Translations under genes and position numbers: made by a program
Shown: in pieces, positions 18,102-63,158 of the stretch
How positions within the stretch are numbered: the stretch's first letter is position 1
Layout of the letters: the number at the start of each line of letters is the position of its first letter
Virus record (IMG/VR): IMGVR_UViG_3300045988_135203
Location: 49,699 to 113,698 of that record
Reading direction: 5' to 3' (one strand)
Length of the DNA stretch: 64,000 nt
From: a virus
Notes under the pieces: generated by a model
Told to the model about the DNA's origin: nothing
Seen by the model: only the letters and a program-made list of their open reading frames with translations
Database searches by the model: none

Positions 18102-18129
18102 AGAATAAGGAGTGAAAGGAGGCCATCAG

Positions 18130-38771: not shown

Positions 38772-38816
38772 CGGAAGAGAAATGTTTGTTTCATTTCTCT
38801 TCCGTTTTTTTACTTT
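38772..38816 (+). terminator. rho-independent terminator (ACGGAAGAGAAATG / CATTTCTCTTCCGT followed by a T-tract)
   Basis: 14-bp perfect stem with a 7-nt loop, followed by TTTTTT. Confidence 0.8.
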
Positions 38817-38844
38817 ATATAAAAAGATAGAAAGGAGATACCGC

Positions 38845-44800: not shown

Positions 44801-46725
44801 TCATTACTTTTGATATTCAAGGTGGTAATTTAGGTTATAATAGCTATAAATTATTAAAGCTTTATATTGATGCTGCAAGTCATACAGATGCAAATGCAAC
44901 TCGTAATATTAATCTTACTGATGTTCAGTGGAGTCCATATGTTAAAGTTACTGATTCAGATTTAGGATTTAGTAATACTGCTAAATATTTTAAAGATGAT
45001 GGACACTTTGGATTAGTAGCATTTACTAGAGATAATTATAATGAAGTAGGTTTCTCTGGTTGGTCTCAATTAATCAAAAATGAAATGATTTATGAATATA
45101 CACCAACTGCAATAAATGGTATTACATTAGATGAAGCTAATGGTGTAACAAATATTACAGATACAGCTCTTCTTGAAGAACTTGTAAGTAATGTTCATTA
45201 CCTTAGTACTGCAGAATCTAATAATGAAGTTCCAAATATTACAGGTTATGTATATATTAATAATGAAACTGCTATTGATGAAGGAACAATTCAAACTAAG
45301 TTGGCAAGTAAATTCCCTGGTTTAACTTTCTTCTTTAATAAAGTTGATAAAGGATATGCAGCTAGATTTGTTATTCTTGAAAATGGTGTAGAAACATTAA
45401 TTGGAACCGATAAGATTAGTAAACAAAACTTTAATACTTTCTTTACTAATCCATTAGAAAGAACAGAAACTGCATTTAGCCCAAGTAGAATTAATGCTTT
45501 AAGACCTACTAAAGACTTCTTAGGTTGGGGTACAACTAATAATAGAGGCGGTTTAATTGAAACATATGATGAAGTTGCTACTGGTCTTGGACTATCCGCA
45601 ACTCATTTATGGAAAGACCAAAAATTAGAAAAAGATAAATATGATTATACTTTTTATGCAGTGTTTGAAGATCATTATTGGAATATTTCTTTCTATATAG
45701 TTGAAGCTGATGGAAGTTATACTCCAATCACAAAAGATACCTACTCTTCTTCTGGCGGAGAAGATGTAGTAACTAAAGTTCCAGTCTCTTATAAAGCAGT
45801 TCATGGTAGTATTTTACATGACCCTGGGGTTAATGTAGCCCGCAGTGATGAAGTTAATTTGGCTAAAGATCAACGTTATAGATTCATTGGCTTTACAAGA
45901 AAAGTAAATGGTAAAAATGTTTATTCTGCGGAAAATGCAGTCAATGTAGTAGATTTTTCTAAAATAGCTGCAACTGCAAATACAAGTTTTTATGCAGCAT
46001 TTGTAGAAGAAAGTGTTTATGATAAAACTACTGATGATAAATATTTTGATTACGTAAATATCCAAATGGATGGAGCTTCTGGATATAGGCTTGAACTTAA
46101 ATCTAAATATTGTAACTCTGGATTCGGAGGTAAGATTACCTTACCAGTAGAATATAATGAAAAACCTATTCTTCAGATTAGTGGATTTGGTGGCGAAACT
46201 AACCATACAAATATTACTCACGTATTCTTTAAAGGAACACCAAAAGTTAAATCTATTGCGGCAGATTGTTTCCGAAATTGCGATAGATTAAAATATTTCC
46301 AATATCCAGATACTATAACTGAATTAGAGGCATATTGTTTCCAACTTACAAAATCACTTGAAGCTTTTAGACTTAATAAAGGTTTAAAAATTATTGGTGA
46401 TAGTGCTTTAAACCAAGCATTTGAGGAATCATCAGATCCTTACGAACTATATATTCCAGGTACAGTTAGTCAACTTGACCAATATGGTGTTTCTTACTTA
46501 TTTAGTAATATTACATCTATTACTATTGGTGGTCCTGGAGATGGAACTAATCTGAGAACTCTTAGTCCTAACGCTTTATCTCAGAATCATAAAGCAAGTA
46601 GTATGACTGTTTACTCTAACGGTCCACTTGAATCTTCATTTAAGACATTATTGGAAGCAACTTCTACAGATTCTCAAGTAGGATTTATTAAACCTAATGT
46701 AACTATTAACTATGTAAATGCATGA
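38845..46725 (+). CDS. giant receptor-binding/tail protein (2627 aa) containing a LamG-like (concanavalin-like) domain and BspA-type leucine-rich repeats
   Basis: The track start 38782 would place the first 21 codons inside the terminator hairpin. ATG 38845 has AAAGGAGA 6 nt upstream. LamG signature ...GGCDVDLYKFRVYNRALGLNEVLKNI at ~40440-41190. BspA/LRR_5-like repeats (VKSIAADCFRNCDRLKYFQYPDTITELEAYCFQLTKSLEAFRLNKGLKIIGDSALNQAF) at ~46220-46425. Gly-rich linker SGSGGGGGTGGDSG near the N-terminus. Confidence 0.7.
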   Translation: MNPSFRPIRGTEEKLLSTPYQEGYIYFAVDTGNIYMDANGQAKIPLGGRGAAVLYSKVKGAQNAGDDNYTLYQDGLEDPNQTVREGDLIINTADGAFYKVLELNPAEEAIICARIAVSGSGGGGGTGGDSGPTIRRGRLTVTNDGESDILNGSPCTFTITTTSATETIEGQAKPIDDELQLAIKFMLTESNQVFYTETLTVEHGQTFTYNVGEHLRSSSDITIDFKLSGSLTNSFYNSGQLQRRIKTHDLNIEWVASQFSNMKYFTDSINTSIRFSTGARRILDVYFDDALIYTKIYSAEASDANASPIITKNSTIYNLNGTSTGNTLSAAYSHGRHTISARLSLAKADGSRGSSTNLIKKEVALYLDEGYPLIWFGDMESIYYEYDTPLVPIRVYDPHAGAAGAEVYLYIDGSDALDGSCYTISNDASNYLYWTLTKLAAGQTTVYQVRVGEDKYETWETVPEFEVLEDPRKMDIARSSLIVDFDSRGRSNSEVAQRRSQLKIGDSYATLSGFNWYNNGWVMDSNNVTCLRISNGASVSLPIGSMSFAGNIASHTIEMRLKIRNVQSYDKLITNYTRYQVISDPDKLSSPDIDRSWTDDTVFAEFLAQKATGLASYDAYLTKRLPELREQNPTIPTYEDLEFSRLHRTYDLASAMVKYIENESSPQTEAAICLGPQDGYFSNGTNAVTVDYVEDKVINLTIVYDNGTGTSNLGNNKLMKFYLNGMLTSVARSQSAGSWSIGANNLIISSGGCDVDLYKFRVYNRALGLNEVLKNIAYDDTDTTAWDLAELYVANESIGEDYQFSYNKMIEYNKNHPDGYIMPYIIFTTDDTDNSTGGKLPWRKDTPVTAGIEFVNTGLERAYDNGDLAAEAKAAGVEIEDYYLHHCPSWIAEGAKLSVQGTSSEFYPRRNYKGKTKVDVPHVDENGGTSTDEFGDVRTDTVYTMKCHKGPFKKKYDAGEAKPQKFFYYDNNTVGTNKFTLKVDYMESSGTYNMGLANLVNTAYSHHPLRDYNSAEAFVTGTAGKETLISAYPANGLCWYRNHKGNWKCASTGDASKDEQLITTPYGDVLGDISCKNAADFAKGPWQLAKEQGQTKVLGGTKKTLPDSLDDIDIITNNINQNSENGTYDDLKGYINKWYSYVPGTLSPITVGNLSDYRTSVQGFPTLAFWQTKTGKENKQEPLFIGRYNMLLDKGSAEAYGFKLGGSYKQAFIEGNPSVADVAECWEFENNSRGYCSFRDPWSRKELSFKAPVGESNEFTAKGAPIIADYFEYRYNANDDYIDMLYSMNASFENTNTIKKLQKQFGADQITDIASGRKKLLDLYSNWEKAVAWVWSTATDAVIDGKTIPTLGSYNKIELAEYIFAPNKFYIEDEQGGYKFATEYKTGISYYLINNDKQYYGVTVTNEANKVYVANKYYTLENDSYVLAEGAYDSSEVYYELVQDTSKIDEFWKLPAPVTYGTTTYEYDTQEYRLAKFKNEIEDHFNLEYLVTYFVITEVLECYDSRGKNAMFASWGPQKAKGDYIWYPIFYDMDTQLGINNTGIPSFEYNIDATEDGTFSTNDSVLWNNLYALFKNLITDKYEQLTGVPSDYFGGKLENPPFVNVETIQSWYTCDPKYIKSYSVKGIRPLLALNLDEQYKYISITNGKVGYQYQNGEITQDTSNTYFYALQGDRKLSNNQFLTNRLNYIDSWLAVGNYKRGGANRIRSRVSANNAQNTSDKWIEGTSTNGASGLIINTPYYKEDGKTKTHLFDGEYWITMTPVRNMYVTVGTDAANFPSLKYSGTPVRFETSDLEKGVRESGNYREQLYYIYGLDQMKSLGDLSRLYFQEFELSGKASKMVDLLLGYDGTDEEGSQYKNSGVNDWTIPAAAGTITGGMPLLREVNLSNITFKNQTPTFDFSSCEKLENFRDIGSNITQVTFADGVALNTLYLSDSTVNLKLVEARLLTDLVTDEKAPITRKKDNTLTAKPGLFIDGLTNNKQQTKLITFDIQGGNLGYNSYKLLKLYIDAASHTDANATRNINLTDVQWSPYVKVTDSDLGFSNTAKYFKDDGHFGLVAFTRDNYNEVGFSGWSQLIKNEMIYEYTPTAINGITLDEANGVTNITDTALLEELVSNVHYLSTAESNNEVPNITGYVYINNETAIDEGTIQTKLASKFPGLTFFFNKVDKGYAARFVILENGVETLIGTDKISKQNFNTFFTNPLERTETAFSPSRINALRPTKDFLGWGTTNNRGGLIETYDEVATGLGLSATHLWKDQKLEKDKYDYTFYAVFEDHYWNISFYIVEADGSYTPITKDTYSSSGGEDVVTKVPVSYKAVHGSILHDPGVNVARSDEVNLAKDQRYRFIGFTRKVNGKNVYSAENAVNVVDFSKIAATANTSFYAAFVEESVYDKTTDDKYFDYVNIQMDGASGYRLELKSKYCNSGFGGKITLPVEYNEKPILQISGFGGETNHTNITHVFFKGTPKVKSIAADCFRNCDRLKYFQYPDTITELEAYCFQLTKSLEAFRLNKGLKIIGDSALNQAFEESSDPYELYIPGTVSQLDQYGVSYLFSNITSITIGGPGDGTNLRTLSPNALSQNHKASSMTVYSNGPLESSFKTLLEATSTDSQVGFIKPNVTINYVNA

Positions 46726-49896: not shown

Positions 49897-49985
49897 GACA
49901 AAAATAATTAAAATAAAATTAGATATTTTTATAAATTCATAGAGATATAAAAAACTTAAATGAAATGAGAAAAAGGAGGTTAAAC

Positions 49986-52900
49986 ATGGCAGACAATACA
50001 ATAGCTAATGCTATTAAATTTTTAAAAGGCGAAGAAAAAAGTTTGCCCGCAACCAAAACTGAAGGTCAAGTATATTTTGCCTATAAGAATGTCGGCACCG
50101 CAGAGAAACCTTCATATACAGGTGCTATTTATATAGATACTCCTATTGGAGGAACTCAGAATAGAATAAAAATGACCGCAAATGCGGATATAGCAGAATA
50201 TGCTAAAAAAGCTAATACAGATTCTCAAGGTAATCTTATTACAGGATATTTAAGAAATGCTTCTTTGACTGGAAATGCTGATAGTCAAACTTTTACATTT
50301 ACTGCACCTAGTGGTGCAAAATTTAATTTAAAATTAAACGGAGTAAATGATTCACAAGCTGGATTAGTTACTTCTGGTGATCAAATATTTCCTGGATATA
50401 AAACATTAAAATTAAGAGCTAAACCTAGTTCTATAGTTGGCTCAAATGCTGAAAATTCAGATGGATGGTATAAAGTTGCTACAAGTACAATGAGGGATTA
50501 TGATAATACTAATATTTTATACTATGTTAAAAATGGATATAGTTCAGAAGCAGTCGGTATTTTAGATTTTGAAATGAGAAGTAATGATACTAGTATTCAA
50601 TGTTGGGCTTGTAAATGGCTTGTAAGAGGTGCTGGATTTACATCAGGTATGTTTCGTGTTGTTATTGATGGAATGACATGGACCTTATATGCTTATCAGC
50701 CAGTAAAAAGATGGGGTCGTATTTCAATAACTGAAATTTCCAATACAAATATGAGTGGTAATAATCCCAATTATAAAATTACTTATTATAATTCAACCAC
50801 TAAAGAAACTACTGAGCCTGATAAAACGATTAGTTCATCAGATGGCGGACAAGTATATTTAGCAAGCAAAACCACAAGCGATGGAAATGGTCAAAATATT
50901 GCTAATACTTATATTAAATCTTTATCATATTCTAATGATGGAAAGCAATTAATAGCAACGAGAGGCTCAGGGGATACCTCTTTAAAACTTTCATTACCAG
51001 TAGCTAGTTTAACTAAATCTGGTATTGTCACCACTGATGCTCAAAGTTTTGGTGGAACAAAGACTTTTACTACTATTAATTCTACCAATTTAACTGTAAC
51101 TGGTTCTAGTGGTTTTAATTATAGTGGTATTGAAACTGCCACTGGTAATAAAGCAAGACCAGTTTGGTTTGCATATGATGGCATAAATGGTAAGCCTGTA
51201 GTTAATGCTAATTTTACTTATAATCCTGCTACCCAGACACTTAGTGTTGCAAATTTATCTGGAACTGCACAAAAAGCTAGTAATGATGATGGTGGACAGA
51301 ATATTAGAAGTACTTATGTAAAATATAAAACTATAAAATTCAGTGCTGCAGCTGATAAAATCTATCTTTTAGAAGGTAATGGTGCAGGTAGTTCAACTAA
51401 TACTACTATAGGTGATTCAAACATTTCTACAGCCATCATTCCTGCAGCAACAGACAAAGCCGCAGGAGTTATTACAACTGGAACACAAACCTTTAGTGGT
51501 GAGAAAAAATTCAATAATACCATATTCGTAAATGACTGTTTAGCTAGTAAGTCTATAACAGGAACAAATATTACTAAATTAGTATTACTTAGTACACCTA
51601 ATGCAAATATAGGAGATGCTTCTCATACTACTTCAGTTTATTTTAAAGCTTTATTAAAATGGATTTGTTCTAATTATCCTAATAAAATTGAGTGTACTTT
51701 TTTGGGAAAAGTAACTCCTAGCTCAATAGCAAATACATCTATTTTTATTTATAATACTAGTCAAATAGATGCTACTTCTGGTTTACCTCAATATTCATCT
51801 GGTAGTTATACTCACCTTGGTGGTAATATTTATACTTTTGGTACTTATAATTATGCTTTTTACTTTAGAGAAAGCTTAATGTCGGATGACCATTATGCGG
51901 GTTCTGCTTCTTCAGGTGGTGCAGCCACAAGTGCTAATAAATTAAATACCAATGCAGGCTCAGCAACCCTACCAGTATATTTTTCTAATGGTATACCAGT
52001 AGCTTGTAGTACAAATTTAGGAGTTAGTATAACAGGAAATGCAGCTTCTGCTACTAAGTTAACTTCAAGTGCAGGTTCTACTACTCAGCCTATATATTTT
52101 AAAGATGGGAAACCTGTTGCTACTACCTATTCTTTAAATGCCACTATAAAAGCAGGAGTATCTAATAGGATAGCTTTTTATTCTGGTAATAATGAAATTT
52201 CAAGTACTAATTATTTAAAATATTATACTGCTACAAATAGTAAAAAAGCAAATCAAACTATTTTACGTATTTGGGGTACTACTTATGGTAATGATGCAAC
52301 TACTACAATTAGCGGTAAAGCAAGTTCTTTAAATTGGAACGATGGTGGCCCGCAAATACAATTTAGTACTTCTGAAGCAGGATCTCAAGATGGAGCTTTA
52401 ATTTTTACAGACCATGATTCAGCAGGAATTGGAGCAAGTTTTCATTTTGTATCAAATCAAAGTGAATGGAGTGTTGTTTCTAAAAGATTTGTTGCAAAAA
52501 CAAGTATAATCATCGGTCAAGAAGCTCATACCTCTGACAATCAAGGTTATAATTTATATGTTAATGGAACTGAATATATTAATGGAATTTTAACAGCTGT
52601 TGGTGATTGTAAGTTTATTGCTCATGGTAATGAATTCAATTTTGTTCCAACTTTAAAAGCCTCAACTTCTGTATGGCTTAATTATAGACAGACAGGTGGA
52701 CAACCTACAGATGGTGACTTTATTATTAATGAATATATTTTTGGTAATGGTGCAAATAAAGCTTTAGCAAGCATTAAAGATGGTTTATTTTCCGGAGCTG
52801 CTACTTATGTTCGTGATTCTAATAATAAAACAAATAATATTTCAATAACTTATTCTAAAGTTGGACAAACATCAACTTCTTGGCTTGCTTCTTGGAATGG

Positions 52901-54074
52901 GTATGAATTAGGTTGTATTTCTCCTGCTAATATTACTGCGGGTAAAGCTACTAAATTAGCTACAGTACGTACTATAACTTTATCTGGAGCTGTAACTGGC
53001 TCAGTTAGTTTTGATGGTAGCGCAAATGTAACTCTTACTACAAATGTTAATCATACGCATAGTCAATATTATGATTCAAATATATCGAGAACTAAAAATA
53101 CAGTACTTGCTGCACCAAATGGAGCAGATGGTAAAGCTGTATTTAGAAGTTTAGTTGCTGCAGATATTCCTTCTTTAACCAAGAGTAAAATATCTGATTT
53201 TCCAAGCTCTATGCCTGCGAGTGACGTTTATGCATGGGCTAAAGCAAGCAGTAAACCAAGTTATAGTTGGGGTGAGATTACTGGTAAACCGAGTACATTT
53301 ACACCAAGTAGTCATACTCATAATTATTTACCTCTTTCAGGTGGAACAATGTCTGGAGATATAGGTATACCTAATACACCTTCTACTATTGATGGTTCCG
53401 TCCCATATGCAGGTTCTGTTGTAGTTACTGATAATATTACTAAATTTTCATCTTATAAAACATATTTAGGCACATATTGTGATAGTACGGGTACCTGGCG
53501 CAATATGATTTCTATAAGACATAGAAATGGTGCCAATGATGGAATTGATTATGGCATGATGATTTATACACAGCTTACTAGTAAAAGTGATCTTAACTGG
53601 AATAAACAGATAGGAAAAGACAACTGGCAGGGAAGCCGTACAATCCTCGATTCTTCAAATTTCGTTACATATGTACCAACAAAAACTGGTGGTGGAGCTT
53701 CAGGAACTTGGGGAATCAGTGTAACTGGCTCTTCTACATCTTGTACAGGTAACGCTGCTACTGCAACTAAACTTCAAACAGCATGCACTATCAATGGAAC
53801 TTCTTTTAATGGAACAAGTAATATTACAACCTCATATTGGGGAACCGCTAGAAATATTTATATTAGAGATTGTACTAATTCTAATACAGGAACTGCTGTT
53901 TCAGTAAATGGTTCTACCAATGCTTATCTTTCAATGCCATCAACAGCGAGGTTTACTGGTTCTGTTGGAATTGGAAACGGTTCTGGAGCAACTCTTAATT
54001 TCTATACTGCTGCAGACACTATTGGCGCAAAAATTGTTGCATATAACGATAGAATAGAATTCGTATTTGCTTAA
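49986..54074 (+). CDS. tail fibre / receptor-binding protein (1362 aa from ATG 49986)
   Basis: The track start 49965 has no RBS. ATG 49986 has AAAGGAGG 7 nt upstream. Contains two copies of the fibre motif common in phages of Gram-positive bacteria: AGKATKLATVRTITLSGAVTGSVSFDGSANVTL..NHTHSQY (~52940-53060) and AATATKLQTACTINGTSFNGTSNITT (~53757-53830). Also contains GTWGISVTGS, which is shared with the downstream fibres. Confidence 0.75.
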   Translation: MADNTIANAIKFLKGEEKSLPATKTEGQVYFAYKNVGTAEKPSYTGAIYIDTPIGGTQNRIKMTANADIAEYAKKANTDSQGNLITGYLRNASLTGNADSQTFTFTAPSGAKFNLKLNGVNDSQAGLVTSGDQIFPGYKTLKLRAKPSSIVGSNAENSDGWYKVATSTMRDYDNTNILYYVKNGYSSEAVGILDFEMRSNDTSIQCWACKWLVRGAGFTSGMFRVVIDGMTWTLYAYQPVKRWGRISITEISNTNMSGNNPNYKITYYNSTTKETTEPDKTISSSDGGQVYLASKTTSDGNGQNIANTYIKSLSYSNDGKQLIATRGSGDTSLKLSLPVASLTKSGIVTTDAQSFGGTKTFTTINSTNLTVTGSSGFNYSGIETATGNKARPVWFAYDGINGKPVVNANFTYNPATQTLSVANLSGTAQKASNDDGGQNIRSTYVKYKTIKFSAAADKIYLLEGNGAGSSTNTTIGDSNISTAIIPAATDKAAGVITTGTQTFSGEKKFNNTIFVNDCLASKSITGTNITKLVLLSTPNANIGDASHTTSVYFKALLKWICSNYPNKIECTFLGKVTPSSIANTSIFIYNTSQIDATSGLPQYSSGSYTHLGGNIYTFGTYNYAFYFRESLMSDDHYAGSASSGGAATSANKLNTNAGSATLPVYFSNGIPVACSTNLGVSITGNAASATKLTSSAGSTTQPIYFKDGKPVATTYSLNATIKAGVSNRIAFYSGNNEISSTNYLKYYTATNSKKANQTILRIWGTTYGNDATTTISGKASSLNWNDGGPQIQFSTSEAGSQDGALIFTDHDSAGIGASFHFVSNQSEWSVVSKRFVAKTSIIIGQEAHTSDNQGYNLYVNGTEYINGILTAVGDCKFIAHGNEFNFVPTLKASTSVWLNYRQTGGQPTDGDFIINEYIFGNGANKALASIKDGLFSGAATYVRDSNNKTNNISITYSKVGQTSTSWLASWNGYELGCISPANITAGKATKLATVRTITLSGAVTGSVSFDGSANVTLTTNVNHTHSQYYDSNISRTKNTVLAAPNGADGKAVFRSLVAADIPSLTKSKISDFPSSMPASDVYAWAKASSKPSYSWGEITGKPSTFTPSSHTHNYLPLSGGTMSGDIGIPNTPSTIDGSVPYAGSVVVTDNITKFSSYKTYLGTYCDSTGTWRNMISIRHRNGANDGIDYGMMIYTQLTSKSDLNWNKQIGKDNWQGSRTILDSSNFVTYVPTKTGGGASGTWGISVTGSSTSCTGNAATATKLQTACTINGTSFNGTSNITTSYWGTARNIYIRDCTNSNTGTAVSVNGSTNAYLSMPSTARFTGSVGIGNGSGATLNFYTAADTIGAKIVAYNDRIEFVFA

Positions 54075-54970: not shown

Positions 54971-56071
54971 ATGGCAATTTTAAAAGATACGACAATTAAT
55001 GGGACTTTAACCTTGACGGGAAATGGCTATATAACTCTTCCTAAAAAATCTCTTTCTTGGTTACAAGGTTTTCAGCAATCTCCAATTCAAATATCAGATG
55101 CTACTGATAATGGCGGTTATCATCCTTGGATAATCCAGAAGAATACAAGTTCTGCAAAAATGTTTACGATGGGTGTTTATCAAAGTTATTTTGTAATGGC
55201 GGGAAGTGCAACTTCAAGAACAAGTAATGGTTATGATAATGCATTATTTTTTAATGTTACTAATGGAGAATTGAAATTAAATAATTCTTATCTTTATTTA
55301 CATTCTAATAATTATAATAATTATGCTCCTACTAAATCTGGCGGTGGCGCACATGGTACTTGGGGTATTAATATTTCAGGTAACGCCGCAAGCCTATCCT
55401 CAACATTACCTATTAGTAAAGGTGGTACTGGAAGTACAAGCTTTACTTCTAATAGAATGATATATTATAATGGTTCTAGATTAGTATCAGCAAGCAATGT
55501 TAGAGTTTATAGTTCAGAAATTTTTGTTGAAGTTAATAATACTGATACAGTACGTTTTTATGTTCAAAATAATAATAATACTGTAGATTTAAGAACATCA
55601 ACTAGTGCAGGTGTTTATCATAGTAATAGTAAAGGAAGTAAATCAGCTAAATGGCTTATTTATATCAATACTTCTGGAACAGTTGTTGCTAATACATCCG
55701 ATAGAAGAAAGAAAAAATATATTGAAGATACTACAGAATATGAAACAACTTCGATATTAAAAAATATTAAAATTCGTAATTTTATATATAAAGAAGATAT
55801 AGGACATAATAATTTAGTTCAAAATGGTATTTTTGCTCAGGATTTAAGGGATATTATGAAACATTATAATATAAGTAATCGTCCTTGGTTGCAATGGCAT
55901 TATAATAATGATGATAATGTTTATTATGATATAAATGAACCAGAAACAGATAATATGACTTATGAAATTAATTATTCTAGTTTAATTCCATTACTTATAA
56001 AAGGTTGGCAAATTAATGAAAATAAAATTTCTCAATTAAAAGATAAAATTAAAGAATTGGAAGAGATGTAA
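54971..56071 (+). CDS. tail fibre protein with a C-terminal S74-type intramolecular chaperone (autoproteolytic) domain (366 aa)
   Basis: C-terminal ~140 aa (TSDRRKKKYIED...GIFAQDLRD...INYSSLIPLLIKGWQ...LKDKIKELEE) fit the Peptidase_S74 chaperone domain of endosialidase and L-shaped fibres: the Ser-Lys dyad context, the GxxAQ(D/E) motif and YxSLIPLL. The shared motif PTKSGGGAHGTWGINISGNAASLS links it to the neighbouring fibres. Confidence 0.7.
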   Translation: MAILKDTTINGTLTLTGNGYITLPKKSLSWLQGFQQSPIQISDATDNGGYHPWIIQKNTSSAKMFTMGVYQSYFVMAGSATSRTSNGYDNALFFNVTNGELKLNNSYLYLHSNNYNNYAPTKSGGGAHGTWGINISGNAASLSSTLPISKGGTGSTSFTSNRMIYYNGSRLVSASNVRVYSSEIFVEVNNTDTVRFYVQNNNNTVDLRTSTSAGVYHSNSKGSKSAKWLIYINTSGTVVANTSDRRKKKYIEDTTEYETTSILKNIKIRNFIYKEDIGHNNLVQNGIFAQDLRDIMKHYNISNRPWLQWHYNNDDNVYYDINEPETDNMTYEINYSSLIPLLIKGWQINENKISQLKDKIKELEEM

Positions 56072-56074
56072 ATT

Positions 56075-57331
56075 ATGTCTAGATTACGTTCTACTTTAAT
56101 AAATGGAGATTTAACTACTACTAATACTATTACAATTCCACAGAGAAATGTTTCATGGATAGATGGATTTAAAAATTCACCAATTAAAATAATTGATAGT
56201 ACTGATTCATCTAATTATACCCCTTGGTTAATACAATATAATATAGCAGATACTTATACTAGTTATGTTAGTTTTGGGACTTTTATAAATGATATAACTT
56301 TAGTTGGAATACATAAAACTAAATATGATGATGCTATTGAAATTGAACCAGAAAGTAATAATTCTAATATTGCAGTAGCTTCTGACCCTGATGTAACTTT
56401 TGAAGAAGATTTAGATGAAAATTGTATGGTTAGATGGTGGTTTAATGTTGATAATGGCGGATTTGGTATAAGAGGTAGTAAAAAAAGATTAAATGATAAA
56501 AATTGTTATTATATTAATTCTAATAATTATACTAATTATATGCCATCTAAAGCAGGTTCTGGAGCTTCTGGCACTTGGGGAATTAATATTTCGGGTAATG
56601 CCGCAAGTTTATCAAAAGTATTATCAATAGATAAAGGTGGAACTGGTCATAGTTCAATGCAATCTGGTTGTATACTTGTCAAAGGTAGTGGCATCGGAAC
56701 TTTTCCTTGTCTTAAAGCTAATAATTCTACCTATGGAATAGAAACTACAACTGCACAAGCTAAAATAGGAGTATGGAATAATTATAATACAGTAGAATTA
56801 GCTACAAATCAAAATGCTGGTATTTATTGTGATGCTAAAACTTTTACTGATGGAGAAACGAATCCTCCAGATTCAATATATGGAAAGGAAAGTAGATGGC
56901 TCATTTATATTAATACTTCTGGTACTGTTACAAAAAATACCTCAGATAAAAGAAGAAAATTATATATAGAAGATATGCCAGAAAACGAAACTAAAGTATT
57001 ATTAAATGTTCCAATTCGCAACTTTGTATTTAAAGAAGACATTGGACATAATGACCTTGAACAAAATGGTGTATTTGCTCAAGATTTGCGGGAGTTATTA
57101 AAAAAGAATAATATAGGTAATCGTCCTTATTTACAATGGGAATATAACGATAATGACAGAGATGATGTATATTATGATATTAATGCTCCAGAAAAAGATG
57201 ATATGACTTATTCTGTATCTTATAATCATATGATACCTGCGCTTATCAAAGGCTGGCAAATGCAGAATAAAGAAATTGAAGAATTAGAAAAGAAACTCGC
57301 AATACTTAGAATAAAGAAATTAGGTAAATAA
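56075..57331 (+). CDS. paralogous tail fibre protein with a C-terminal S74-type intramolecular chaperone domain (418 aa)
   Basis: Tandem paralogue of the previous gene with a 3-nt gap. Contains SKAGSGASGTWGINISGNAASLS and a C-terminal TSDKRRKLYIED...GVFAQDLRE...VSYNHMIPALIKGWQ. Confidence 0.7.
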   Translation: MSRLRSTLINGDLTTTNTITIPQRNVSWIDGFKNSPIKIIDSTDSSNYTPWLIQYNIADTYTSYVSFGTFINDITLVGIHKTKYDDAIEIEPESNNSNIAVASDPDVTFEEDLDENCMVRWWFNVDNGGFGIRGSKKRLNDKNCYYINSNNYTNYMPSKAGSGASGTWGINISGNAASLSKVLSIDKGGTGHSSMQSGCILVKGSGIGTFPCLKANNSTYGIETTTAQAKIGVWNNYNTVELATNQNAGIYCDAKTFTDGETNPPDSIYGKESRWLIYINTSGTVTKNTSDKRRKLYIEDMPENETKVLLNVPIRNFVFKEDIGHNDLEQNGVFAQDLRELLKKNNIGNRPYLQWEYNDNDRDDVYYDINAPEKDDMTYSVSYNHMIPALIKGWQMQNKEIEELEKKLAILRIKKLGK

Positions 57332-57333
57332 TT

Positions 57334-58428
57334 ATGGCTATTATTGGAAAATGGATGTTTTATAGATCTGGAAGTTTGGGCAGTAAAAAATTTGCTACTA
57401 ACAATGAAATGATTCAAGAAGGCGATGAATTTTTTTGGAAAATAGATTATAAGGGCAATTTTACTGGAACTGCCCATCAAGCCAATCAATTAGGAAGCTC
57501 AACTATTGGTAGCTTAACAAAACCAATATACTTAGTAAACGGAAAACCTACAGCTTGTAGTGATTTAATGCCTAAATCTGGAGGAACTTTTTCTGGTGCT
57601 GTAACATTTAATAGTACAGTTACATGCAGCTCTACTTTAAAGTGCGGAGAATACATAAAAAGTAGTAAATCAGCTTATGCTGGTATAACCAGTTACATAG
57701 ATATGGCAGCTACATCTACAGCTGCTGGAGTAAAAGGTGCAATTTGTATTAGAAATAGTAGTGGAATACATATACAAGGTAATATTGTTGTAATTGAAGG
57801 CGACACAAGTACACCTGCTGCATATGAAGCAGGATATCATATGACAGAAACTGGAAATATGTGTGTTAGAGGAAAATTTCTATGTAAAAATGTTATAGGC
57901 TCATCATATATGTACAATCATGACACAGTATCTGGTGGTGCTAATGTTTATGTTACTTCTAATGGTTGGTTAAGAAGAGCTACTTCTTCAGCAAAATATA
58001 AATTAGATATTAAAGAAATAGAAGAAGACGAAAAATATCCTTATAAAATTTTAAATTTAAAACCAAAACAATGGTTTGATAAAAATAGCATTGAAAAATA
58101 CTCTCAATGGTTAGAAGGTAAAATTAAAAAAGATGAATTAGATGATTGTTCGATAGATTCTTATTATGGCTTAATAGCCGAAGATGTAGAAAAAGTTGGT
58201 TTAAATAAATTTTGTTTTTATGGATATGATAATGCTCGTAATTTAAAAACTATAGAAGGTATTCAATATGATAGATTGCCTATTTTATTTATACCAATAT
58301 TAAATGATTGTATTGATTGTTTTAAAGCTATTTTACCAACAGTGAAAGAGAATATTAAAGATAAAGAAACGTTAGATAAAATTGCTTCGTTAGAAGATAA
58401 ATTTAATTCTATTGGACTTTCTTCTTAA
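57334..58428 (+). CDS. third fibre-like protein with a divergent C-terminal S74-like chaperone domain (364 aa)
   Basis: Starts 2 nt after the previous stop. The C-terminus (ATSSAKYKLDIKEIE...YGLIAEDVEKV...IQYDRLPILFIPILND) matches the same chaperone-domain pattern. Confidence 0.6.
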   Translation: MAIIGKWMFYRSGSLGSKKFATNNEMIQEGDEFFWKIDYKGNFTGTAHQANQLGSSTIGSLTKPIYLVNGKPTACSDLMPKSGGTFSGAVTFNSTVTCSSTLKCGEYIKSSKSAYAGITSYIDMAATSTAAGVKGAICIRNSSGIHIQGNIVVIEGDTSTPAAYEAGYHMTETGNMCVRGKFLCKNVIGSSYMYNHDTVSGGANVYVTSNGWLRRATSSAKYKLDIKEIEEDEKYPYKILNLKPKQWFDKNSIEKYSQWLEGKIKKDELDDCSIDSYYGLIAEDVEKVGLNKFCFYGYDNARNLKTIEGIQYDRLPILFIPILNDCIDCFKAILPTVKENIKDKETLDKIASLEDKFNSIGLSS

Positions 58429-58466
58429 AATATTATAATATATAAATAAAAAAGGAGATACTAAAA

Positions 58467-58745
58467 GTGAGATTACACGCGGGAGATGTAGTTAAACATT
58501 TTAAACGAGAGACCCTTTCACAAGAAGAACAGGAAAACACTAAAAAATATTTATATATAATTTATGATATAGCAGAGCATACTGAAACTGGTGAAAAATT
58601 AGTAATATATCATAGCTTATATGAGCCATTTAAATTATATGCTCGTCCAATAGATATGTTTATGAGTGAAGTGGATAAAGAAAAATATCCAAACATAAAA
58701 CAAGAATATAGATTTGAACTTTGGGAGGATAAAAAGGATGAATAG
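58467..58745 (+). CDS. DUF1653-like small protein (92 aa; GTG start)
   Basis: The pattern HFKRE...YIIYDIAEHTETGEKLVIYHSLYEP...ARPIDMF...YRFE resembles the DUF1653 family as I remember it. RBS AAAGGAG. Confidence 0.45.
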   Translation: MRLHAGDVVKHFKRETLSQEEQENTKKYLYIIYDIAEHTETGEKLVIYHSLYEPFKLYARPIDMFMSEVDKEKYPNIKQEYRFELWEDKKDE

Positions 58746-59136
58746 TTTAGATATTTTAAAACAAATTTTTGATGTATGTATTGTGCCTTTAATTGCAATT
58801 TTAACTTCTTATTTAATTAGTTATATTCAAGTCCAAAAAGAGCAATTAAAGAAAAAAACAGATAATGAGTTACTAAATAAGTATATTGACATGGCGGCTA
58901 ATACTATTGCGGATTGTGTTACTACAACTAATCAAACGTATGTAGAAGCCTTGAAAAAAGAAGGTAAATTTGATGAGGAAGCGCAAAAGGTTGCCTTTCA
59001 AAAAACTTTAAATGCGGTTTTAGCTTTACTCACTAAAGAAGCTAAAGATTATTTAACTGAAGCTTATGGAGATTTGAATTTATATTTAACTAATAAAATT
59101 GAGTCTACAGTTAATGAGAAAAAAACTTCTAAATAA
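58738..59136 (+). CDS. putative holin (Holin_LLH / superfamily-6-like; 132 aa from ATG 58738)
   Basis: Single N-terminal TM helix (IVPLIAILTSYLISYI). The hydrophilic remainder shows an A.N..ADCV...NQTYVEALKKEGKFDEEAQK...IESTVNE pattern resembling LL-H-type holins. RBS GGAGGATAAAAAGG precedes ATG 58738. The track start 58714 lacks an RBS. A terminator follows. Confidence 0.5.
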   Translation: MNSLDILKQIFDVCIVPLIAILTSYLISYIQVQKEQLKKKTDNELLNKYIDMAANTIADCVTTTNQTYVEALKKEGKFDEEAQKVAFQKTLNAVLALLTKEAKDYLTEAYGDLNLYLTNKIESTVNEKKTSK

Positions 59137-59146
59137 TATATTGCCA

Positions 59147-59186
59147 AAGGGGTAGGTTCTTAGAAAAGGAACCTACCCCTTATTTT
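59147..59186 (+). terminator. rho-independent terminator (AAGGGGTAGGTTC / GAACCTACCCCTT)
   Basis: 13-bp perfect stem, 9-nt loop, followed by ATTTTG. Confidence 0.65.
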
Positions 59187-59326
59187 GCATTATACCAAAA
59201 ATTTTTTAGAAAAATATTTTGGAGTGTAGGAGAAAACTGGGCGAAGGAAGTAAAAGATTACCAAAAAATTCGCATATACTTATGAAAGGGAGAGGAGAAA
59301 AAGTTAATAGAAAGAAGGTAAGTAAA

Positions 59327-59749
59327 ATGTATCCTAATTACAATTATTACCCACCTCGCCAACAGCAACAAATGCAGCCGCAACAATCACAACCTCAAAT
59401 TCCTCCTTTTCTTAAAGGTAGACCAGTATCTTCATTAGAAGAGGTTAGAGCTATTCCAATAGACTTTGATGGTTCTGTTTTTTACTTCCCAGATATAGCC
59501 AATAGAAGAATATATACAAAACAAATTAATTTAGATGGGACAGCATTAATAAACATGTATGAATTCAAGCCTATTCCAGTAGCACAAGAATCTACTTCTA
59601 ATACAAATACAGATGCCTTTGTAACTAGAGAAGAATTTGAAGAAACAATGTCAAAAATTAAAGGAATGTTTGCGGCGATACCAGTGCAGAGTCCGCAACC
59701 GGCGCAAAAAGAAGTAACTAAGAAACCCGCAGAAATGCCAAAATTTTAA
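59327..59749 (+). CDS. Pro/Gln/Tyr-rich hypothetical protein (140 aa from ATG 59327)
   Basis: The track ORF begins at 59219 with no RBS. ATG 59327 has AGAAGG 8 nt upstream. N-terminus MYPNYNYYPPRQQQQMQPQQSQPQIPP is low-complexity. Confidence 0.4.
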   Translation: MYPNYNYYPPRQQQQMQPQQSQPQIPPFLKGRPVSSLEEVRAIPIDFDGSVFYFPDIANRRIYTKQINLDGTALINMYEFKPIPVAQESTSNTNTDAFVTREEFEETMSKIKGMFAAIPVQSPQPAQKEVTKKPAEMPKF

Positions 59750-59761
59750 GGAGGAAACCGC

Positions 59762-60007
59762 ATGAATAATATAAATCCTATGCAATTAATTCAGATGATT
59801 AAAGGCGGTCAAAATCCGCAACAACTTATGATGAGTATACTTGAACAACAAATGCAAAATACTCCAATGGGAGCTAATCTATTGTCTTTAGCAAAGCAAA
59901 ATAGAAGTGCAGATATTGAACAAATCGCCCGCAATATATGTAAACAAAGCGGAAAAGATTTTGATAAAGAATTTAATGCTTTCAAGCAAATGCTTGGGCT
60001 TAAATAA
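59762..60007 (+). CDS. small Gln-rich hypothetical protein (81 aa)
   Basis: RBS AAGGAGGAAACC. No recognisable domain. Confidence 0.45.
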   Translation: MNNINPMQLIQMIKGGQNPQQLMMSILEQQMQNTPMGANLLSLAKQNRSADIEQIARNICKQSGKDFDKEFNAFKQMLGLK

Positions 60008-60031
60008 TAAATTTTAAAGGAGGACATTAAT

Positions 60032-60802
60032 ATGTTCAATAATGCAGCTAGTGGCTATAGTTTAGCCGATATCGCAGCCGCTACAGGTTCTACCCGTAAT
60101 GATAATGGATGGGGCTTTGGTGGCGATGGAGGAGCTTGGTGGATTATCATACTTTTCCTTTTCTGTTTCGCAGGATGGGGAGGAAATGGAAATGGTCTAT
60201 TTGGAGGCGGTTCCACAGGTTCCGGAATTACTGATGGTTATATTTTAACATCAGATTTTGCCAACATTGAAAGAAAAATTGATAACGTAAATAATGGTAT
60301 TTGTGATGGATTTTATGCCATGAATACAGGCATGTTGAATGGATTTGCTGGTATTAATAATAATATTACACAGCAAACTATTGCAGATATGCAGAATACT
60401 AACGCTATTAATTCAGGTATTACCAATTTGGGTACTCAATTACAGCAATGTTGCTGCCAGACAAGATATGAAGACGCTCAAAACTTTGCTCAATTAAATT
60501 ATAATTTAGCAGACCAAGAATGTTCAACTCGTAGAGCTGTTTCTGATGCGACAAGAGATTTAATGGAAAATCAAAATGCTAATACTAGAAGTGTATTAAG
60601 CGCAATTCAAGAAATGCAAACACAGGCACTGCATGATAAGATTACTGAACTTACAGCTGTTAATTCTGACCTTAAATTCCAAGCTAGTCAGGCAGCTCAG
60701 AACAGTTATCTCATCAATGCACTTAATCCTTCACCTGTACCTGCATACACAGTTCCTAACCCTTATTCAAGTTATAGAAGCTGTGGATGTTCAACTTTAT
60801 GA
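60032..60802 (+). CDS. membrane protein with a Gly-zipper TM segment and a Q/N-rich, Cys-containing extracytoplasmic or cytoplasmic domain (256 aa)
   Basis: RBS AAAGGAGG. Has GAWWIIILFLFCFAGWGGNGNGLFGGG as a single TM helix plus Gly-rich flanks, a CCCQ triplet, and C-terminal SCGCSTL. Confidence 0.55.
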   Translation: MFNNAASGYSLADIAAATGSTRNDNGWGFGGDGGAWWIIILFLFCFAGWGGNGNGLFGGGSTGSGITDGYILTSDFANIERKIDNVNNGICDGFYAMNTGMLNGFAGINNNITQQTIADMQNTNAINSGITNLGTQLQQCCCQTRYEDAQNFAQLNYNLADQECSTRRAVSDATRDLMENQNANTRSVLSAIQEMQTQALHDKITELTAVNSDLKFQASQAAQNSYLINALNPSPVPAYTVPNPYSSYRSCGCSTL

Positions 60803-60871
60803 TTAATTAGCTTGACTACTAGGGAGCTGGCAGGCTCCCTAGATAGTTAAATTCCTGAAAGGAGACTATTT

Positions 60872-61294
60872 ATGGAACTAACTAGTAATGTAGTACAAAC
60901 TGTAAATGCAAATGATAATGTTGTATTTATTACAACAAGAATCCCTGGTAATTGTTCAGTTCTTCATACCGAGGGAAGTGGAAATATTAAAATGAGAGGC
61001 TTGTCTAATAACCAATGCCGCTCAAGATTCAAGGTAACTTTTACTGGTAATATTGCGGTTCCAACTGGAGGTACCGCAGGAGCTATTTCACTAACTATTA
61101 CTATAGATGGTGAAGCAGTCCGTACCGCACAAATGATTGTAACACCTGCCGCAGTAGAGCAATACTTTAATGTAGCTTCATGTGTATACATTGATGTACC
61201 TACTGGATGCTGCTCAACTGCAGGAGTAACCAATACTTCAACACAAGCGATTAACGTTCAAAACGCTAATCTTATAGTAGAAAGGGTGGCGTAA
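60872..61294 (+). CDS. small beta-rich protein (140 aa) with C1q/TNF-like (BclA-CTD/BxpB-like) character
   Basis: RBS AAAGGAGA. The sequence pattern (FKVTFTGNIAVP, ISLTITIDGEAV, YFNVASCVYIDVPTG, ANLIVERV) is reminiscent of the jelly-roll C-terminal domains of Bacillus exosporium proteins. Judged by eye only. Confidence 0.4.
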   Translation: MELTSNVVQTVNANDNVVFITTRIPGNCSVLHTEGSGNIKMRGLSNNQCRSRFKVTFTGNIAVPTGGTAGAISLTITIDGEAVRTAQMIVTPAAVEQYFNVASCVYIDVPTGCCSTAGVTNTSTQAINVQNANLIVERVA

Positions 61295-61295
61295 T

Positions 61296-61832
61296 ATGCA
61301 TAGACTATATGATATGAAAAATTGTTTAATTAGTGCTGCCCAATCTCAAATGGGAAATCTTCAAGATTGTAATGCTGAAGAGCTTGGTGAAGTAATTGAT
61401 ATGATAAAAGACCTTGAAGAAGCAATTTATTATTGTACAATTACAAAAGCTATGAACGAAAAAGAAGAAAATAATTCTTCTCAATATCGTATGTATTACA
61501 AGGAAAGAGGAGGACAAGATTATGATAATTCCTCTTCATATATTAACTATCCTAGAATTGATAAGTATAATGATAAAAGCAATGAACATTATCGAGAAAG
61601 AGAATTTCCTTTAGAGATGCGGGATGCACGCGAGGGTCGCAGTCCAGTGCGTCGTCGCATGTATATGGAATCTAAAGAACTTCATAAGGATAAAGTAACT
61701 GCAATGAAAGAACTTGAAGAGTATATGCAAGAATTAAGTTCTGACATTTGTGAAATGATTGAAGATGCTTCTCCAGAAGAGAAACAACTACTTCAAAAGA
61801 AAATTATTGCTTTATCAAATAAAATACAATGA
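61296..61832 (+). CDS. highly charged hypothetical protein (178 aa)
   Basis: Starts 1 nt after the previous stop (TAAT ATG). K/E/R/D-rich and coiled-coil-like. Confidence 0.5.
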   Translation: MHRLYDMKNCLISAAQSQMGNLQDCNAEELGEVIDMIKDLEEAIYYCTITKAMNEKEENNSSQYRMYYKERGGQDYDNSSSYINYPRIDKYNDKSNEHYREREFPLEMRDAREGRSPVRRRMYMESKELHKDKVTAMKELEEYMQELSSDICEMIEDASPEEKQLLQKKIIALSNKIQ

Positions 61833-62146
61833 TTAAAATAAATGGAGAAACCTGGAGAATATTCTTGGTTTCTCCTAATCATCCAATTCTATATACTAAT
61901 GGTTCTTATACACTTGGGGCTTGTGATAATGTTACTCATTCAATTTATATTAATGAAAACCTTAGTTCTCATAAAATGAAAAAAGTATTATGTCATGAGT
62001 TAACACATGCCGCAATGTTTAGTTATGAGGTAGAATTAACGTTAAAACAAGAAGAACTACTAGCAGATTTACTTGCTACTTATGGGCAAGAAATTATTAA
62101 TATGACAAATGAAATTTTTATTAAATTAAAGAGGAATATTTATTAG
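61829..62146 (+). CDS. small HExxH zinc-metallopeptidase-like protein (105 aa; SprT/ImmA-like motif)
   Basis: ATGA overlap with the upstream gene. The VLCHELTHAAMFSYE motif matches the HExxH plus downstream Glu arrangement of small SprT/ImmA-like Zn proteases. Confidence 0.5.
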   Translation: MIKINGETWRIFLVSPNHPILYTNGSYTLGACDNVTHSIYINENLSSHKMKKVLCHELTHAAMFSYEVELTLKQEELLADLLATYGQEIINMTNEIFIKLKRNIY

Positions 62147-62174
62147 CATGATTAATAAATATTCCTCTTTTTTC
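62128..62174. terminator. bidirectional terminator between convergent transcription units
   Basis: AAAGAGGAATATTTATTA / TAATAAATATTCCTCTTT, an 18-bp perfect inverted repeat, flanked by an A-run on one side and a T-run on the other. Lies between the plus-strand gene ending at 62146 and the minus-strand gene ending at 62177. Confidence 0.75.
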
Positions 62175-62176
62175 AT

Positions 62177-62605
62177 TTAATCGGTAATATGTTTTGCCTT
62201 TTGTACAACTAAAGCAAATAAACTATCACCATTATGATTGCCTTTTAAACCATTATAAGCATCATGGTCTTCAATACACTGTTGGTATTCTTCCAACGTT
62301 ATTTCGTGGTCTTCAGCTAATAATGCTTGGCATTCAGCTATAAATTCTTTCTTTTGCATTGAAAGAATTCCTTTTCTAAGAGCATCTAATTGCTTTTGCA
62401 ATTCTTGGTCGCCATCTCTTGATTCTTTTTCTATTACATCATATCGAGAAAACATATCTTTTTTGAGATTTTCATAAAATTTAGTACGTTCAATATTTTG
62501 TTCGTCTTCTCTCATCTTCATATATTTTTTGAAAAAGTACCCACCGCCTGCAATTATTAAGCCAAAACCAAATTCAACCCAATATTTAATTATAAAGTCT
62601 AACAT
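62177..62605 (-). CDS. hypothetical membrane-anchored protein (142 aa)
   Basis: N-terminal TM helix (VEFGFGLIIAGGGYFF) followed by a charged helical domain. RBS GGAGGAACACC upstream on the minus strand. Confidence 0.5.
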   Translation of the reverse strand: MLDFIIKYWVEFGFGLIIAGGGYFFKKYMKMREDEQNIERTKFYENLKKDMFSRYDVIEKESRDGDQELQKQLDALRKGILSMQKKEFIAECQALLAEDHEITLEEYQQCIEDHDAYNGLKGNHNGDSLFALVVQKAKHITD

Positions 62606-62666
62606 GGTGTTCCTCCTACCTTAATTCTCATATAAAATTAAAAAATAGGAGAGTCAAATTTATTTA

Positions 62667-63158
62667 TTAAGACCAATCAAACATTTCTGTTTCTTCTTCT
62701 TTTACAAAATAATGAGTTCCAATACATATTGCATCAGCTTCATCTTCTGTACATTTTAATCCATAAGTAGATTGAACATATGCTTGCGCGTTTTTCTTTT
62801 GCTCTGCTCTAACTTTACCTTTAATCTGTAAAGTAGAACGCCATTGTACAGCTAGAACTGAACTATTAGGTATTTTAATTTCTGTAAAATATTCACATAA
62901 AACTCCAATAACTTCTGCGAGTTTTTTAAATGTTAATACATTATTCCCGGCACCATTTTTTAATTGTATATCTTCAAAAATGACTTCGTCTACTTCATAT
63001 TTTTCAATTAATTCCTTAACCTTATTTTTAATATTCATTAATCTTTCACCAAAATCTTTATCAGTAAAAGTAAAATGTCCATAATCAAGAAGTTTGCCGT
63101 CTTCAAAAACGGCAAATCCTGATATTCGACTACTTTGGTCTAAAGCTAAAAGTTTCAT
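62667..63158 (-). CDS. RuvC-like Holliday junction resolvase (163 aa)
   Basis: N-terminal LALDQSSRISGFAV (catalytic Asp in the DxS context). Internal EVDEVIFEDIQ. C-terminal EDEADAICIGTHY acidic/His residues. All typical of the phage/Firmicute RuvC-family resolvase fold. Start overlaps the dUTPase stop (TAATG). Confidence 0.75.
   Translation of the reverse strand: MKLLALDQSSRISGFAVFEDGKLLDYGHFTFTDKDFGERLMNIKNKVKELIEKYEVDEVIFEDIQLKNGAGNNVLTFKKLAEVIGVLCEYFTEIKIPNSSVLAVQWRSTLQIKGKVRAEQKKNAQAYVQSTYGLKCTEDEADAICIGTHYFVKEEETEMFDWS

Follow-up and report, generated by a model that had tools for sequence, protein, structure and literature searches.

A portable six-gene accessory cassette behind a predicted holin in a large gut phage

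The cassette and its proteins

The 64-kb stretch of viral DNA analysed here (positions 49,699 to 113,698 of IMG/VR record IMGVR_UViG_3300045988_135203), referred to below as the window, carries one copy of a six-gene cassette at 59327-62146, whose products are named PQ140, Q81, mem256, beta140, chg178 and HExxH105 and whose composition defines what is called variant A (Table 1). The cassette is placed where the structural-gene strand ends, behind a predicted holin gene and its terminator, and is closed by a second terminator. The open reading frames (ORFs) downstream of the holin are preceded by good ribosome-binding sites, and the last three genes are closely coupled, with 1 nt between the beta140 stop and the chg178 ATG and an ATGA overlap of the chg178 stop with the HExxH105 start. 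An initial annotation of this region had listed a holin-like gene with a terminator, the lack of a lysin in the window, P/Q/Y-rich, Gln-rich, Gly-flanked/CCCQ and highly charged proteins, a C1q-like beta protein and an HExxH mini-protease, the last three genes being coupled; every one of these elements was found in place with its individual properties, the compositions as read from the sequence, whereas the lysis or host-manipulation role proposed for them was only partly supported.

The two proteins at the centre of the cassette are mem256 and beta140. mem256 begins with an acidic tail of about 30 residues, followed by a hydrophobic anchor (AWWIIILFLFCF) set between Gly-rich runs, a long helix and a Pro-rich tail; the anchor region is its single hydrophobic segment (about residues 29-51). 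The helix, predicted to extend over some 155 residues, contains a CCC that is invariant in the family alignment, while the protein has a QQCCCQ motif, eight Cys in total and a conserved C-terminal tail that reads P-x-P-x-PAY-x-VPNPY...CGC. The one family matched is uninformative, and sequence and profile searches against the PDB gave nothing meaningful. A likeness of profile residues 72-141 to residues 68-139 of influenza HA2 (E ~1e-3 to 2e-2) was rejected as most likely a coiled-coil composition bias. The five other cassette proteins have no hydrophobic N-terminal stretch, as judged by hydropathy only, and no lipobox or lipoprotein signal occurs in any of the six.

The C1q-like character of beta140 is borne out by an AlphaFold2 (AF2) model of the monomer (predicted local distance difference test score, pLDDT, 87), which has the ten-strand jelly-roll topology and finds its best structural matches in the spore-surface proteins F-BclA, BclA and ExsFA, at only 10-18% sequence identity. 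No sequence family was found in Pfam (E up to 0.1) or NCBIfam (E up to 1), nor any sequence hit in the PDB. The protein is a bare domain, in that no collagen-like or other stalk is present in the same polypeptide. Conservation is high, loops included; the C-terminus (NANLIVERVA) is invariant, and Cys28, Cys49 and the pair Cys113-Cys114 are conserved. Characterised members of the C1q/TNF/BclA-type fold are trimers.

The remaining proteins are mostly of low complexity. PQ140 has 9 Gln, 7 Pro and 4 Tyr among its first 32 residues, and its family alignment (1,071 clusters at 50% identity) resolves into the P/Q/Y-rich N-terminus, a conserved domain of about 55 residues, a VTREEF...-type helix and a Lys/Glu/Pro tail; the window copy has no Pfam, PHROG or PDB hit. 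In chg178, for which no Pfam, PHROG or PDB family was found, the alignment places N- and C-terminal helices around a variable, disordered middle rich in K, Y, D, R and S. HExxH105 scores above the cut-off of Pfam Peptidase_M78 (26.5 bits against 22) and matches phrog_1233 (E 3e-17), while the match spans only positions 27-69 of the 123 in the M78 profile and a full catalytic domain was not found. Its homologues (1,194 clusters, ~105-110 aa, PF06114) are named ImmA by the Joint Genome Institute, and there are weak matches to the minigluzincin MJ1213 and to IrrE. It therefore resembles ImmA/IrrE (M78) proteins and MJ1213 in its gathering-level score, HELTH motif and minigluzincin size, and differs from ImmA/IrrE in that only the motif region of the profile is matched and no XRE/ImmR-type repressor adjoins it: no helix-turn-helix gene lies in or next to the window cassette.

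Holin, beta140 and HExxH105 can each be placed, none of them fully, the first falling below curated thresholds, the second having no sequence family and the third matching part of a profile. For the four remaining proteins, as for the cassette taken as a whole, there is no match in Pfam, NCBIfam, PADLOC, the PDB or the literature searched, where nothing relevant on phage BclA- or C1q-like cassettes was found. The cassette is indeed the least-described part of the window, as had been supposed, with no informative names and no Pfam family for the core proteins.

Table 1. Features of the cassette and its surroundings (window coordinates)
Feature	Position	Strand	Description
PQ140	59327-59749	+	first cassette gene; ribosome-binding site and ATG
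Q81	59762-60007	+	81 aa; Gln/Asn/Met-rich, helical; 15% Gln
mem256	60032-60802	+	phrog_16490, E 1e-36
Hairpin between mem256 and beta140	60812-60850	+	17 bp, no U tract; -25.1 kcal/mol, z -4.8
beta140	60872-61294	+	140 aa; stand-alone C1q/TNF/BclA-C-terminal-domain-like jelly-roll
chg178	61296-61832	+	35% charged residues
HExxH105	61829-62146	+	105 aa; mini ImmA/IrrE (M78)-type Zn-peptidase-like; HELTH at residues 56-60
Terminator hairpin closing the cassette	62128-62170	.	19-bp stem, T run; -20.5 kcal/mol, z -6.7; point of convergence of + and - genes
Holin (predicted)	58738-59136	+	132 aa; LLH-like; one N-terminal transmembrane segment; phrog_13712
Intrinsic terminator after holin	59147-59181	+	15-bp stem, U tract; -26 kcal/mol, z -5.6
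DUF1653 protein	58467-58745	+	92 aa; Pfam DUF1653, E 3.4e-17; upstream context, outside the cassette
142-aa protein	62177-62605	-	hydrophobic N-terminal segment, charged helical remainder; converges on cassette terminator
YonB	68-1174		Pfam
Tape-measure protein	8567-18013		3,148 aa; first of the tail set, downstream of SPbeta-type head genes
Tail/fibre gene	18112-24585		
Tail/fibre gene	30732-36116		
Tail/fibre gene	38782-46725		
Tail/fibre gene	49965-54074		
Tail/fibre gene	54971-58428		

Recurrence, variants and RNA elements

The gene order was derived by iterated hidden Markov model searches on the ORFs of fetched records (L numbers below). Of these, 80 are contigs from metagenome-assembled genomes (MAGs) of gut and rumen origin, labelled mostly Clostridia and Bacilli, and 16 are phage records, with Butyrivibrio virus Ceridwen and three lemur-faeces Dulem viruses among them. 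In about 90 of the fetched loci, mem256 is a direct neighbour of beta140 and their order is kept; around them, PQ140 lies upstream in 79 and chg178 downstream in 49, while HExxH105 and Q81 are present in 27 and 21, respectively. The invariant core is shown by this comparison to consist of PQ140, a small Gln-rich protein, mem256 and beta140. Core proteins share 40-65% identity between otherwise unrelated phages, and in public metagenomes their homologues form 7,522 (beta140) and more than 7,400 (mem256) clusters at 90% identity, with no Pfam domain and no name other than 'hypothetical protein'. Since the fixed order recurs in many independent phages, the six ORFs are not an accidental cluster, and the initial view that they belong together holds; the cassette is a real, portable accessory module, mostly of late operons, whose presence is independent of a nearby endolysin. 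Two unusual proteins are of note. P0389 (179 aa) has the N-terminal two-thirds of PQ140 fused to chg178's C-terminal helices and looks like a natural deletion fusion that removed Q81, mem256 and beta140. A candidate Rosetta-stone fusion, P0490 (740 aa), was discarded as an apparent artefact of read-through into the gene of an SNF2 helicase.

The position of the cassette varies among carriers. In the window and its large relatives, in Ceridwen and in Dulem virus 33, it comes last in the late operon, after lysis genes, and ordinary lysins coexist with it in Ceridwen (a glucosaminidase with PG_binding_1) and Dulem virus 33 (a PGRP amidase), where a terminator separates it from the endolysin and holin genes. 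Annotated upstream neighbours include Phage_min_cap2 (6 loci), lysins (5), holins (4) and Sigma70_r4 (2), a small sigma-70 region-4-like gene lying directly upstream in 14 loci; those downstream include a convergently encoded dUTPase (8), integrase (7), scaffold (6), terminase (2) and GH25 (2). Terminator-like T runs (CTTTTTT) are enriched ahead of the cassette, where the gap has a median length of about 106 nt. A shared promoter motif was sought by k-mer enrichment, which gave only T runs and ribosome-binding sites, and hits to a CATAC-type motif proved to be partly uncalled coding sequence.

Such placement would also suit a moron-type accessory cassette, one that serves superinfection exclusion, anti-defence or another form of host takeover and has no part in egress. 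Its location at module boundaries and beside integrases, the terminators and gaps that flank it, the sigma-70 region-4-like gene in front of it and its transfer between unrelated phages all agree with this, but six to eight co-linear genes kept at such identity across distant phages are unusually conserved for arms-race genes, no PADLOC system was detected (two chance-level matches only, E 0.02-0.06), and the cassette is present in the large, virulent-looking window phage, in which the 84 kb covered (the window and 10 kb of each flank, out of a genome of ~180 kb) showed no lysogeny genes. Such a moron role is considered unlikely.

The structural matches of beta140 raise another reading, already hinted at in the initial annotation, in which the phage adds BclA/ExsFA-like and coat-like, low-complexity, Cys-rich proteins to the spores of its host. 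Besides these matches, the Cys-rich or K/Y/D/R/S-rich cassette proteins resemble coat and exosporium proteins in having no hydrophobic N-terminal stretch (again by hydropathy only), and many of the MAG contigs are labelled Clostridia. The one cultured phage-host pair with the cassette, however, is the lytic Butyrivibrio virus Ceridwen on Butyrivibrio fibrisolvens DSM 3071, and B. fibrisolvens is not known to form spores; for this reason a spore role is held to be extremely improbable. The MAG labels, too, are mostly of lineages not known as spore formers, no spore family of Pfam or NCBIfam is matched, and the C1q/TNF fold is widespread outside spores. Compared with the C-terminal domain of BclA, the F-BclA tip and ExsFA/BxpB of Bacillus spores, beta140 matches no family of theirs, lacks both a collagen-like stalk and exosporium partner genes, and is instead encoded by phages, always adjoining a membrane-anchored coiled-coil protein.

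Clustering of all ORFs of the fetched loci separates two variants of the cassette. While variant A is that of the window, variant B consists of a 127-aa protein (fam5, phrog_3754) at its 5' end, PQ140, a 73-aa Gln-rich protein (phrog_22984), mem256, beta140, in most cases a chg178-like protein and frequently a helical protein of 110 aa. The two small Gln-rich proteins, Q81 and the 73-aa protein, never occur together (0 loci with both, 14 and 42 with one) and share a short motif (hhalign, probability 40%). Likewise, fam5 and HExxH105 co-occur in only 2 loci, with fam5 alone in 40 and HExxH105 alone in 23. A peptidase-like gene is nearly always part of the cassette, either of Zn type at the 3' end (variant A) or of Cys-His-Asp type at the 5' end (variant B). 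In fam5 (for example L001:5068-5445 and L021:2242-2631), the invariant Cys17 (in Asp-Cys), His97 and Asp108 are suggestive of a putative papain-like catalytic triad, while PDB sequence and profile searches gave nothing meaningful. The possibility that HExxH105 is a divergent copy of fam5 or of another family, fam10, was rejected because hhalign finds no homology; hence these are replacements. Since fam5 and HExxH105 are both nearly exclusive and unrelated, the swap is read here as the non-orthologous replacement of a predicted peptidase that the cassette may need, and the unrelated fam5 of variant B suggests that the substrate of the peptidase would be internal to the cassette rather than a repressor.

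The two variants also differ in the spacer before beta140. In variant B the spacer between mem256 and beta140 measures about 116 nt and is highly structured in 46 of 55 loci, with a variable hairpin, an invariant ATG, a hairpin TTCGGC...GCCGAT and a GC-rich third hairpin, in that order; the third, terminator-like in that it is usually followed by a T run, lies just before the beta140 ribosome-binding site. Compensatory changes occur in 10-11 of 12 pairs (RNAalifold and pair counting), and 97.8% of the cells of the alignment are paired, as against 82% after shuffling and ~40% when the partners are slid. A covariance model (R1) finds exactly one copy in each of 54 loci (examples are L022:4353-4475, L078:1088-1198 and L051:6852-6973), always directly 5' of beta140, where the leader stays even if genes have been inserted after mem256. 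The model finds no copy in the window, where the spacer holds the single hairpin of Table 1, and the leader matches no Rfam family. It is probably a cis-regulatory element and suggests that the knob half of the cassette is under separate expression control, probably of an attenuation type. A different RNA, RAGATH-21 (RF03097, above the gathering score), was seen at L004:9094-9170 and L006:9115-9199, after the chg178 homologue and before the scaffold gene.

Genome setting and the lone holin

The window has a G+C content of about 30%, and nearly all of its genes are on the plus strand up to 62146. An identical sequence is present, reversed, at ~64001-128000 of the 180,528-bp metagenomic contig ena:ERZ27261545:k99_17744, while no near match to the DNA of known phages was found for 58400-62700. 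The Pfam families YonG_N, YonD_N, YonB, YomW, YomV_2nd and YomU_Tube occur in the 10 kb upstream and the first window genes, and this SPbeta-type structural set, together with the tape-measure protein, therefore identifies a large SPbeta-like siphophage. An HNH endonuclease interrupts the SPbeta-type head genes in the upstream 10 kb (L093). Besides the tape-measure protein there are four more tail proteins of 1,369-2,647 aa, two of them with BspA-type leucine-rich repeat matches, and three fibre genes that are paralogous and carry Peptidase_S74 chaperone domains. The strand ends in the order giant tail proteins and fibres, DUF1653 gene, holin, cassette. The stop of the DUF1653 gene overlaps the holin start, so that the two are translationally coupled. 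From the opposite side converge genes for a 142-aa membrane protein, RuvC, dUTPase, NrdG, NrdD, guanylate kinase and DNA polymerase III alpha, and from such replication and nucleotide-metabolism genes the phage looks virulent. The 142-aa protein is kept in relatives L017 and L025, matches no known family and could be a lysis regulator.

The closest large relatives (L014, L015, L017, L018, L019, L024, L025, L026, L029, L035 and L044, on contigs of up to 175 kb) have TAG codons within the reading frames of the holin, of every cassette gene, of RuvC and of the 142-aa membrane protein. Because the most frequent partner of TAG in alignments with the window proteins is Gln (58 of 144 cases), these relatives appear to be TAG-to-Gln recoded phages. 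The genes of the window phage read cleanly in the standard code, and in-frame TGA was seen in L048 and L056. TAG recoding was considered as a clock of expression time and is not decisive, since RuvC and the 142-aa protein of the opposite strand contain TAG as well.

The gene at the head of this region is best described as that of a predicted holin. It matches the PHROG holin families phrog_13712 (E 7.5e-35) and phrog_36209 (E 4e-8), with a hydropathy maximum at residues 3-33, and is LLH-like though the curated models stay under threshold (PF09682, Holin_LLH, 13.9 bits against 24.9; TIGR01673, 18.5 against 34.75). No endolysin gene adjoins it in the window: Pfam and PHROG scans found no peptidoglycan-hydrolase domain in the window ORFs of at least 90 aa, one 103-aa ORF and a few nested ORFs being left out, and precomputed Pfam calls give no lysin domain among the called genes in 10 kb on either side, so that no ordinary endolysin was found just outside the window. 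Tail-fibre genes precede the holin in the large relatives too, and across the clade of the window phage they are followed by an LLH-type holin and then the cassette, with no intervening lysin; the lone holin is therefore a feature of this clade of SPbeta-like gut phages. The endolysin, if present, may sit in the remaining ~96 kb of the genome. In SPbeta itself, the lysis region comprises the amidase gene blyA and the holin genes bhlA and bhlB; behind them lie accessory genes, among them the sublancin operon. The window phage shares with SPbeta the structural genes and the placement of accessory genes behind a lysis gene at the end of the structural strand, and differs in having no amidase by the holin, a holin that is LLH-like rather than BhlA-like, and this cassette as its accessory genes.

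From the lone holin the initial annotation had reasoned that the genes behind it could form a non-canonical lysis module, that is, that the cassette would supply the breach of wall or envelope missing beside the holin. Several observations are in line with this, namely the place of the cassette directly behind the holin, the lack of a lysin domain nearby, the retention of this order in large relatives, and the layout of mem256, whose N-terminal anchor and large helical, Cys-containing domain recall i-spanin Rz and T4 holin T, as does its position just downstream of lysis genes in several phages. However, the step from a missing endolysin to non-canonical lysis fails because the same cassette coexists with an ordinary endolysin and holin in Ceridwen and Dulem virus 33, beyond a terminator, and it also lies in head modules, by integrases and by early or replication genes, away from lysis genes. 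No endolysin domain (amidase, lysozyme, CHAP, glucosaminidase, M15 or M23) is found in any cassette protein by Pfam, PHROG, NCBIfam or PDB sequence searches, and no wall-hydrolase fold or family is present. mem256 matches neither the i-spanin nor the T4 holin family and, although it has the anchor and long helix of a spanin (Rz/Rz1), no cassette protein carries the lipoprotein signal of an o-spanin partner; the carrier contigs, moreover, are mostly labelled as Clostridia and Bacilli, which are in general monoderm. An endolysin may also be encoded in the remaining ~96 kb of the genome. The cassette is probably not the missing cell-wall-lysing enzyme of the phage, and a lysis module in this sense is judged very unlikely. 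Host manipulation at the envelope, the other role then suggested, is possible.

Proposed function of the cassette

The reading preferred here, with low confidence in its functional part and put forward only tentatively, is that the cassette encodes a late-expressed, membrane-tethered stalk-and-knob complex that acts at the cell envelope. mem256 would be the membrane-tethered coiled-coil stalk, facing the cytoplasm as its acidic N-terminal tail may suggest, and a beta140 trimer would dock on the conserved mem256 tail, to give a split stalk and knob comparable to a TNF ligand or BclA made in two polypeptides. The low-complexity proteins PQ140, Q81 and chg178 could serve as adaptors or matrix, and the small peptidase could process one of the cassette components. 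Made late, such a complex might act at the envelope on the timing or efficiency of egress or on the exclusion of other phages; it would be no substitute for the endolysin, whose gene probably lies in another part of the genome. The likeness to TNF ligands and ectodysplasin, which combine a type II anchor, a stalk and a trimeric head that is shed by a protease, is an analogy with no homology implied, since stalk and head are separate polypeptides in the cassette and the head has no export signal. More conservatively, the cassette is likened to a known class, the portable late accessory cassettes that tailed phages carry beside the holin.

Several observations weigh against a late, cytoplasm-facing complex of this kind. 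The AF2 model of mem256, a transmembrane helix plus one long helix, is of low confidence (pLDDT 52), and the charges flanking the anchor leave the membrane topology undecided. The Cys clusters CCC, CGC and GCC suit an oxidising or extracellular setting or metal binding, and fit a simple cytoplasmic tether poorly. No recognisable sigma-70 promoter was found upstream of PQ140 in the window. Nor is the cassette always part of a late operon, since its neighbours in Dulem virus 39 are replication-type genes. In at least six to nine loci, finally, it is found between the genes for minor capsid protein 2 and the scaffold or major capsid protein, which fits a virion-related role as well.

Because of the Cys clusters and these head-module contexts, a virion-associated or post-lysis extracellular role stays alive. 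In its virion-associated form, the cassette would be a morphogenetic module that provides either a fibre of the head or neck, bearing a C1q-like knob, or assembly factors such as a scaffold-like chg178 and a maturation protease. Phage fibres, receptor-binding proteins and fibritin commonly end in C1q/TNF-like knobs, the proteins other than mem256 lack a hydrophobic stretch at the N-terminus (by hydropathy only), the Cys-rich motifs would be suited to cross-linking after release, and chg178 has helices around a disordered core as scaffolding proteins do. As opposed to this, the strongly hydrophobic anchor of mem256 would be unusual in a tailed-phage particle protein, the conservation of beta140 extends to its loops, unlike that of receptor-binding tips, and the cassette varies in position, is absent from most phages of the same virion types and lies, in the window, more than 55 kb from the head genes and behind a terminator. 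On balance such a module is improbable.

A bolder form of the stalk-and-knob proposal is rather unlikely, in which the cassette would be a new late system of gut Firmicute phages that builds a membrane-nucleated, self-assembling stalk-and-knob or lattice from the mem256/beta140 pair, a low-complexity matrix rich in Gln, Tyr and Arg, Cys clusters for cross-linking or metal binding, and its own maturation peptidase of either Zn or Cys type, with the RNA leader of variant B controlling the knob sub-operon. If this is true, such a membrane-nucleated structure could, for instance, coat or tether progeny or cell remnants after lysis.

For annotation, the lesson of this locus is that a holin without a neighbouring endolysin is no evidence of a lysis role for the genes downstream. 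Phages and prophages of gut and rumen Firmicutes are the only carriers of the core families, each of which exceeds 7,400 clusters at 90% identity, and the cassette is among the commoner unexplained gene sets of this virome. With the limits of its parts, its two variants, one fold, the peptidase swap and a covarying RNA leader now defined, it has become directly testable.

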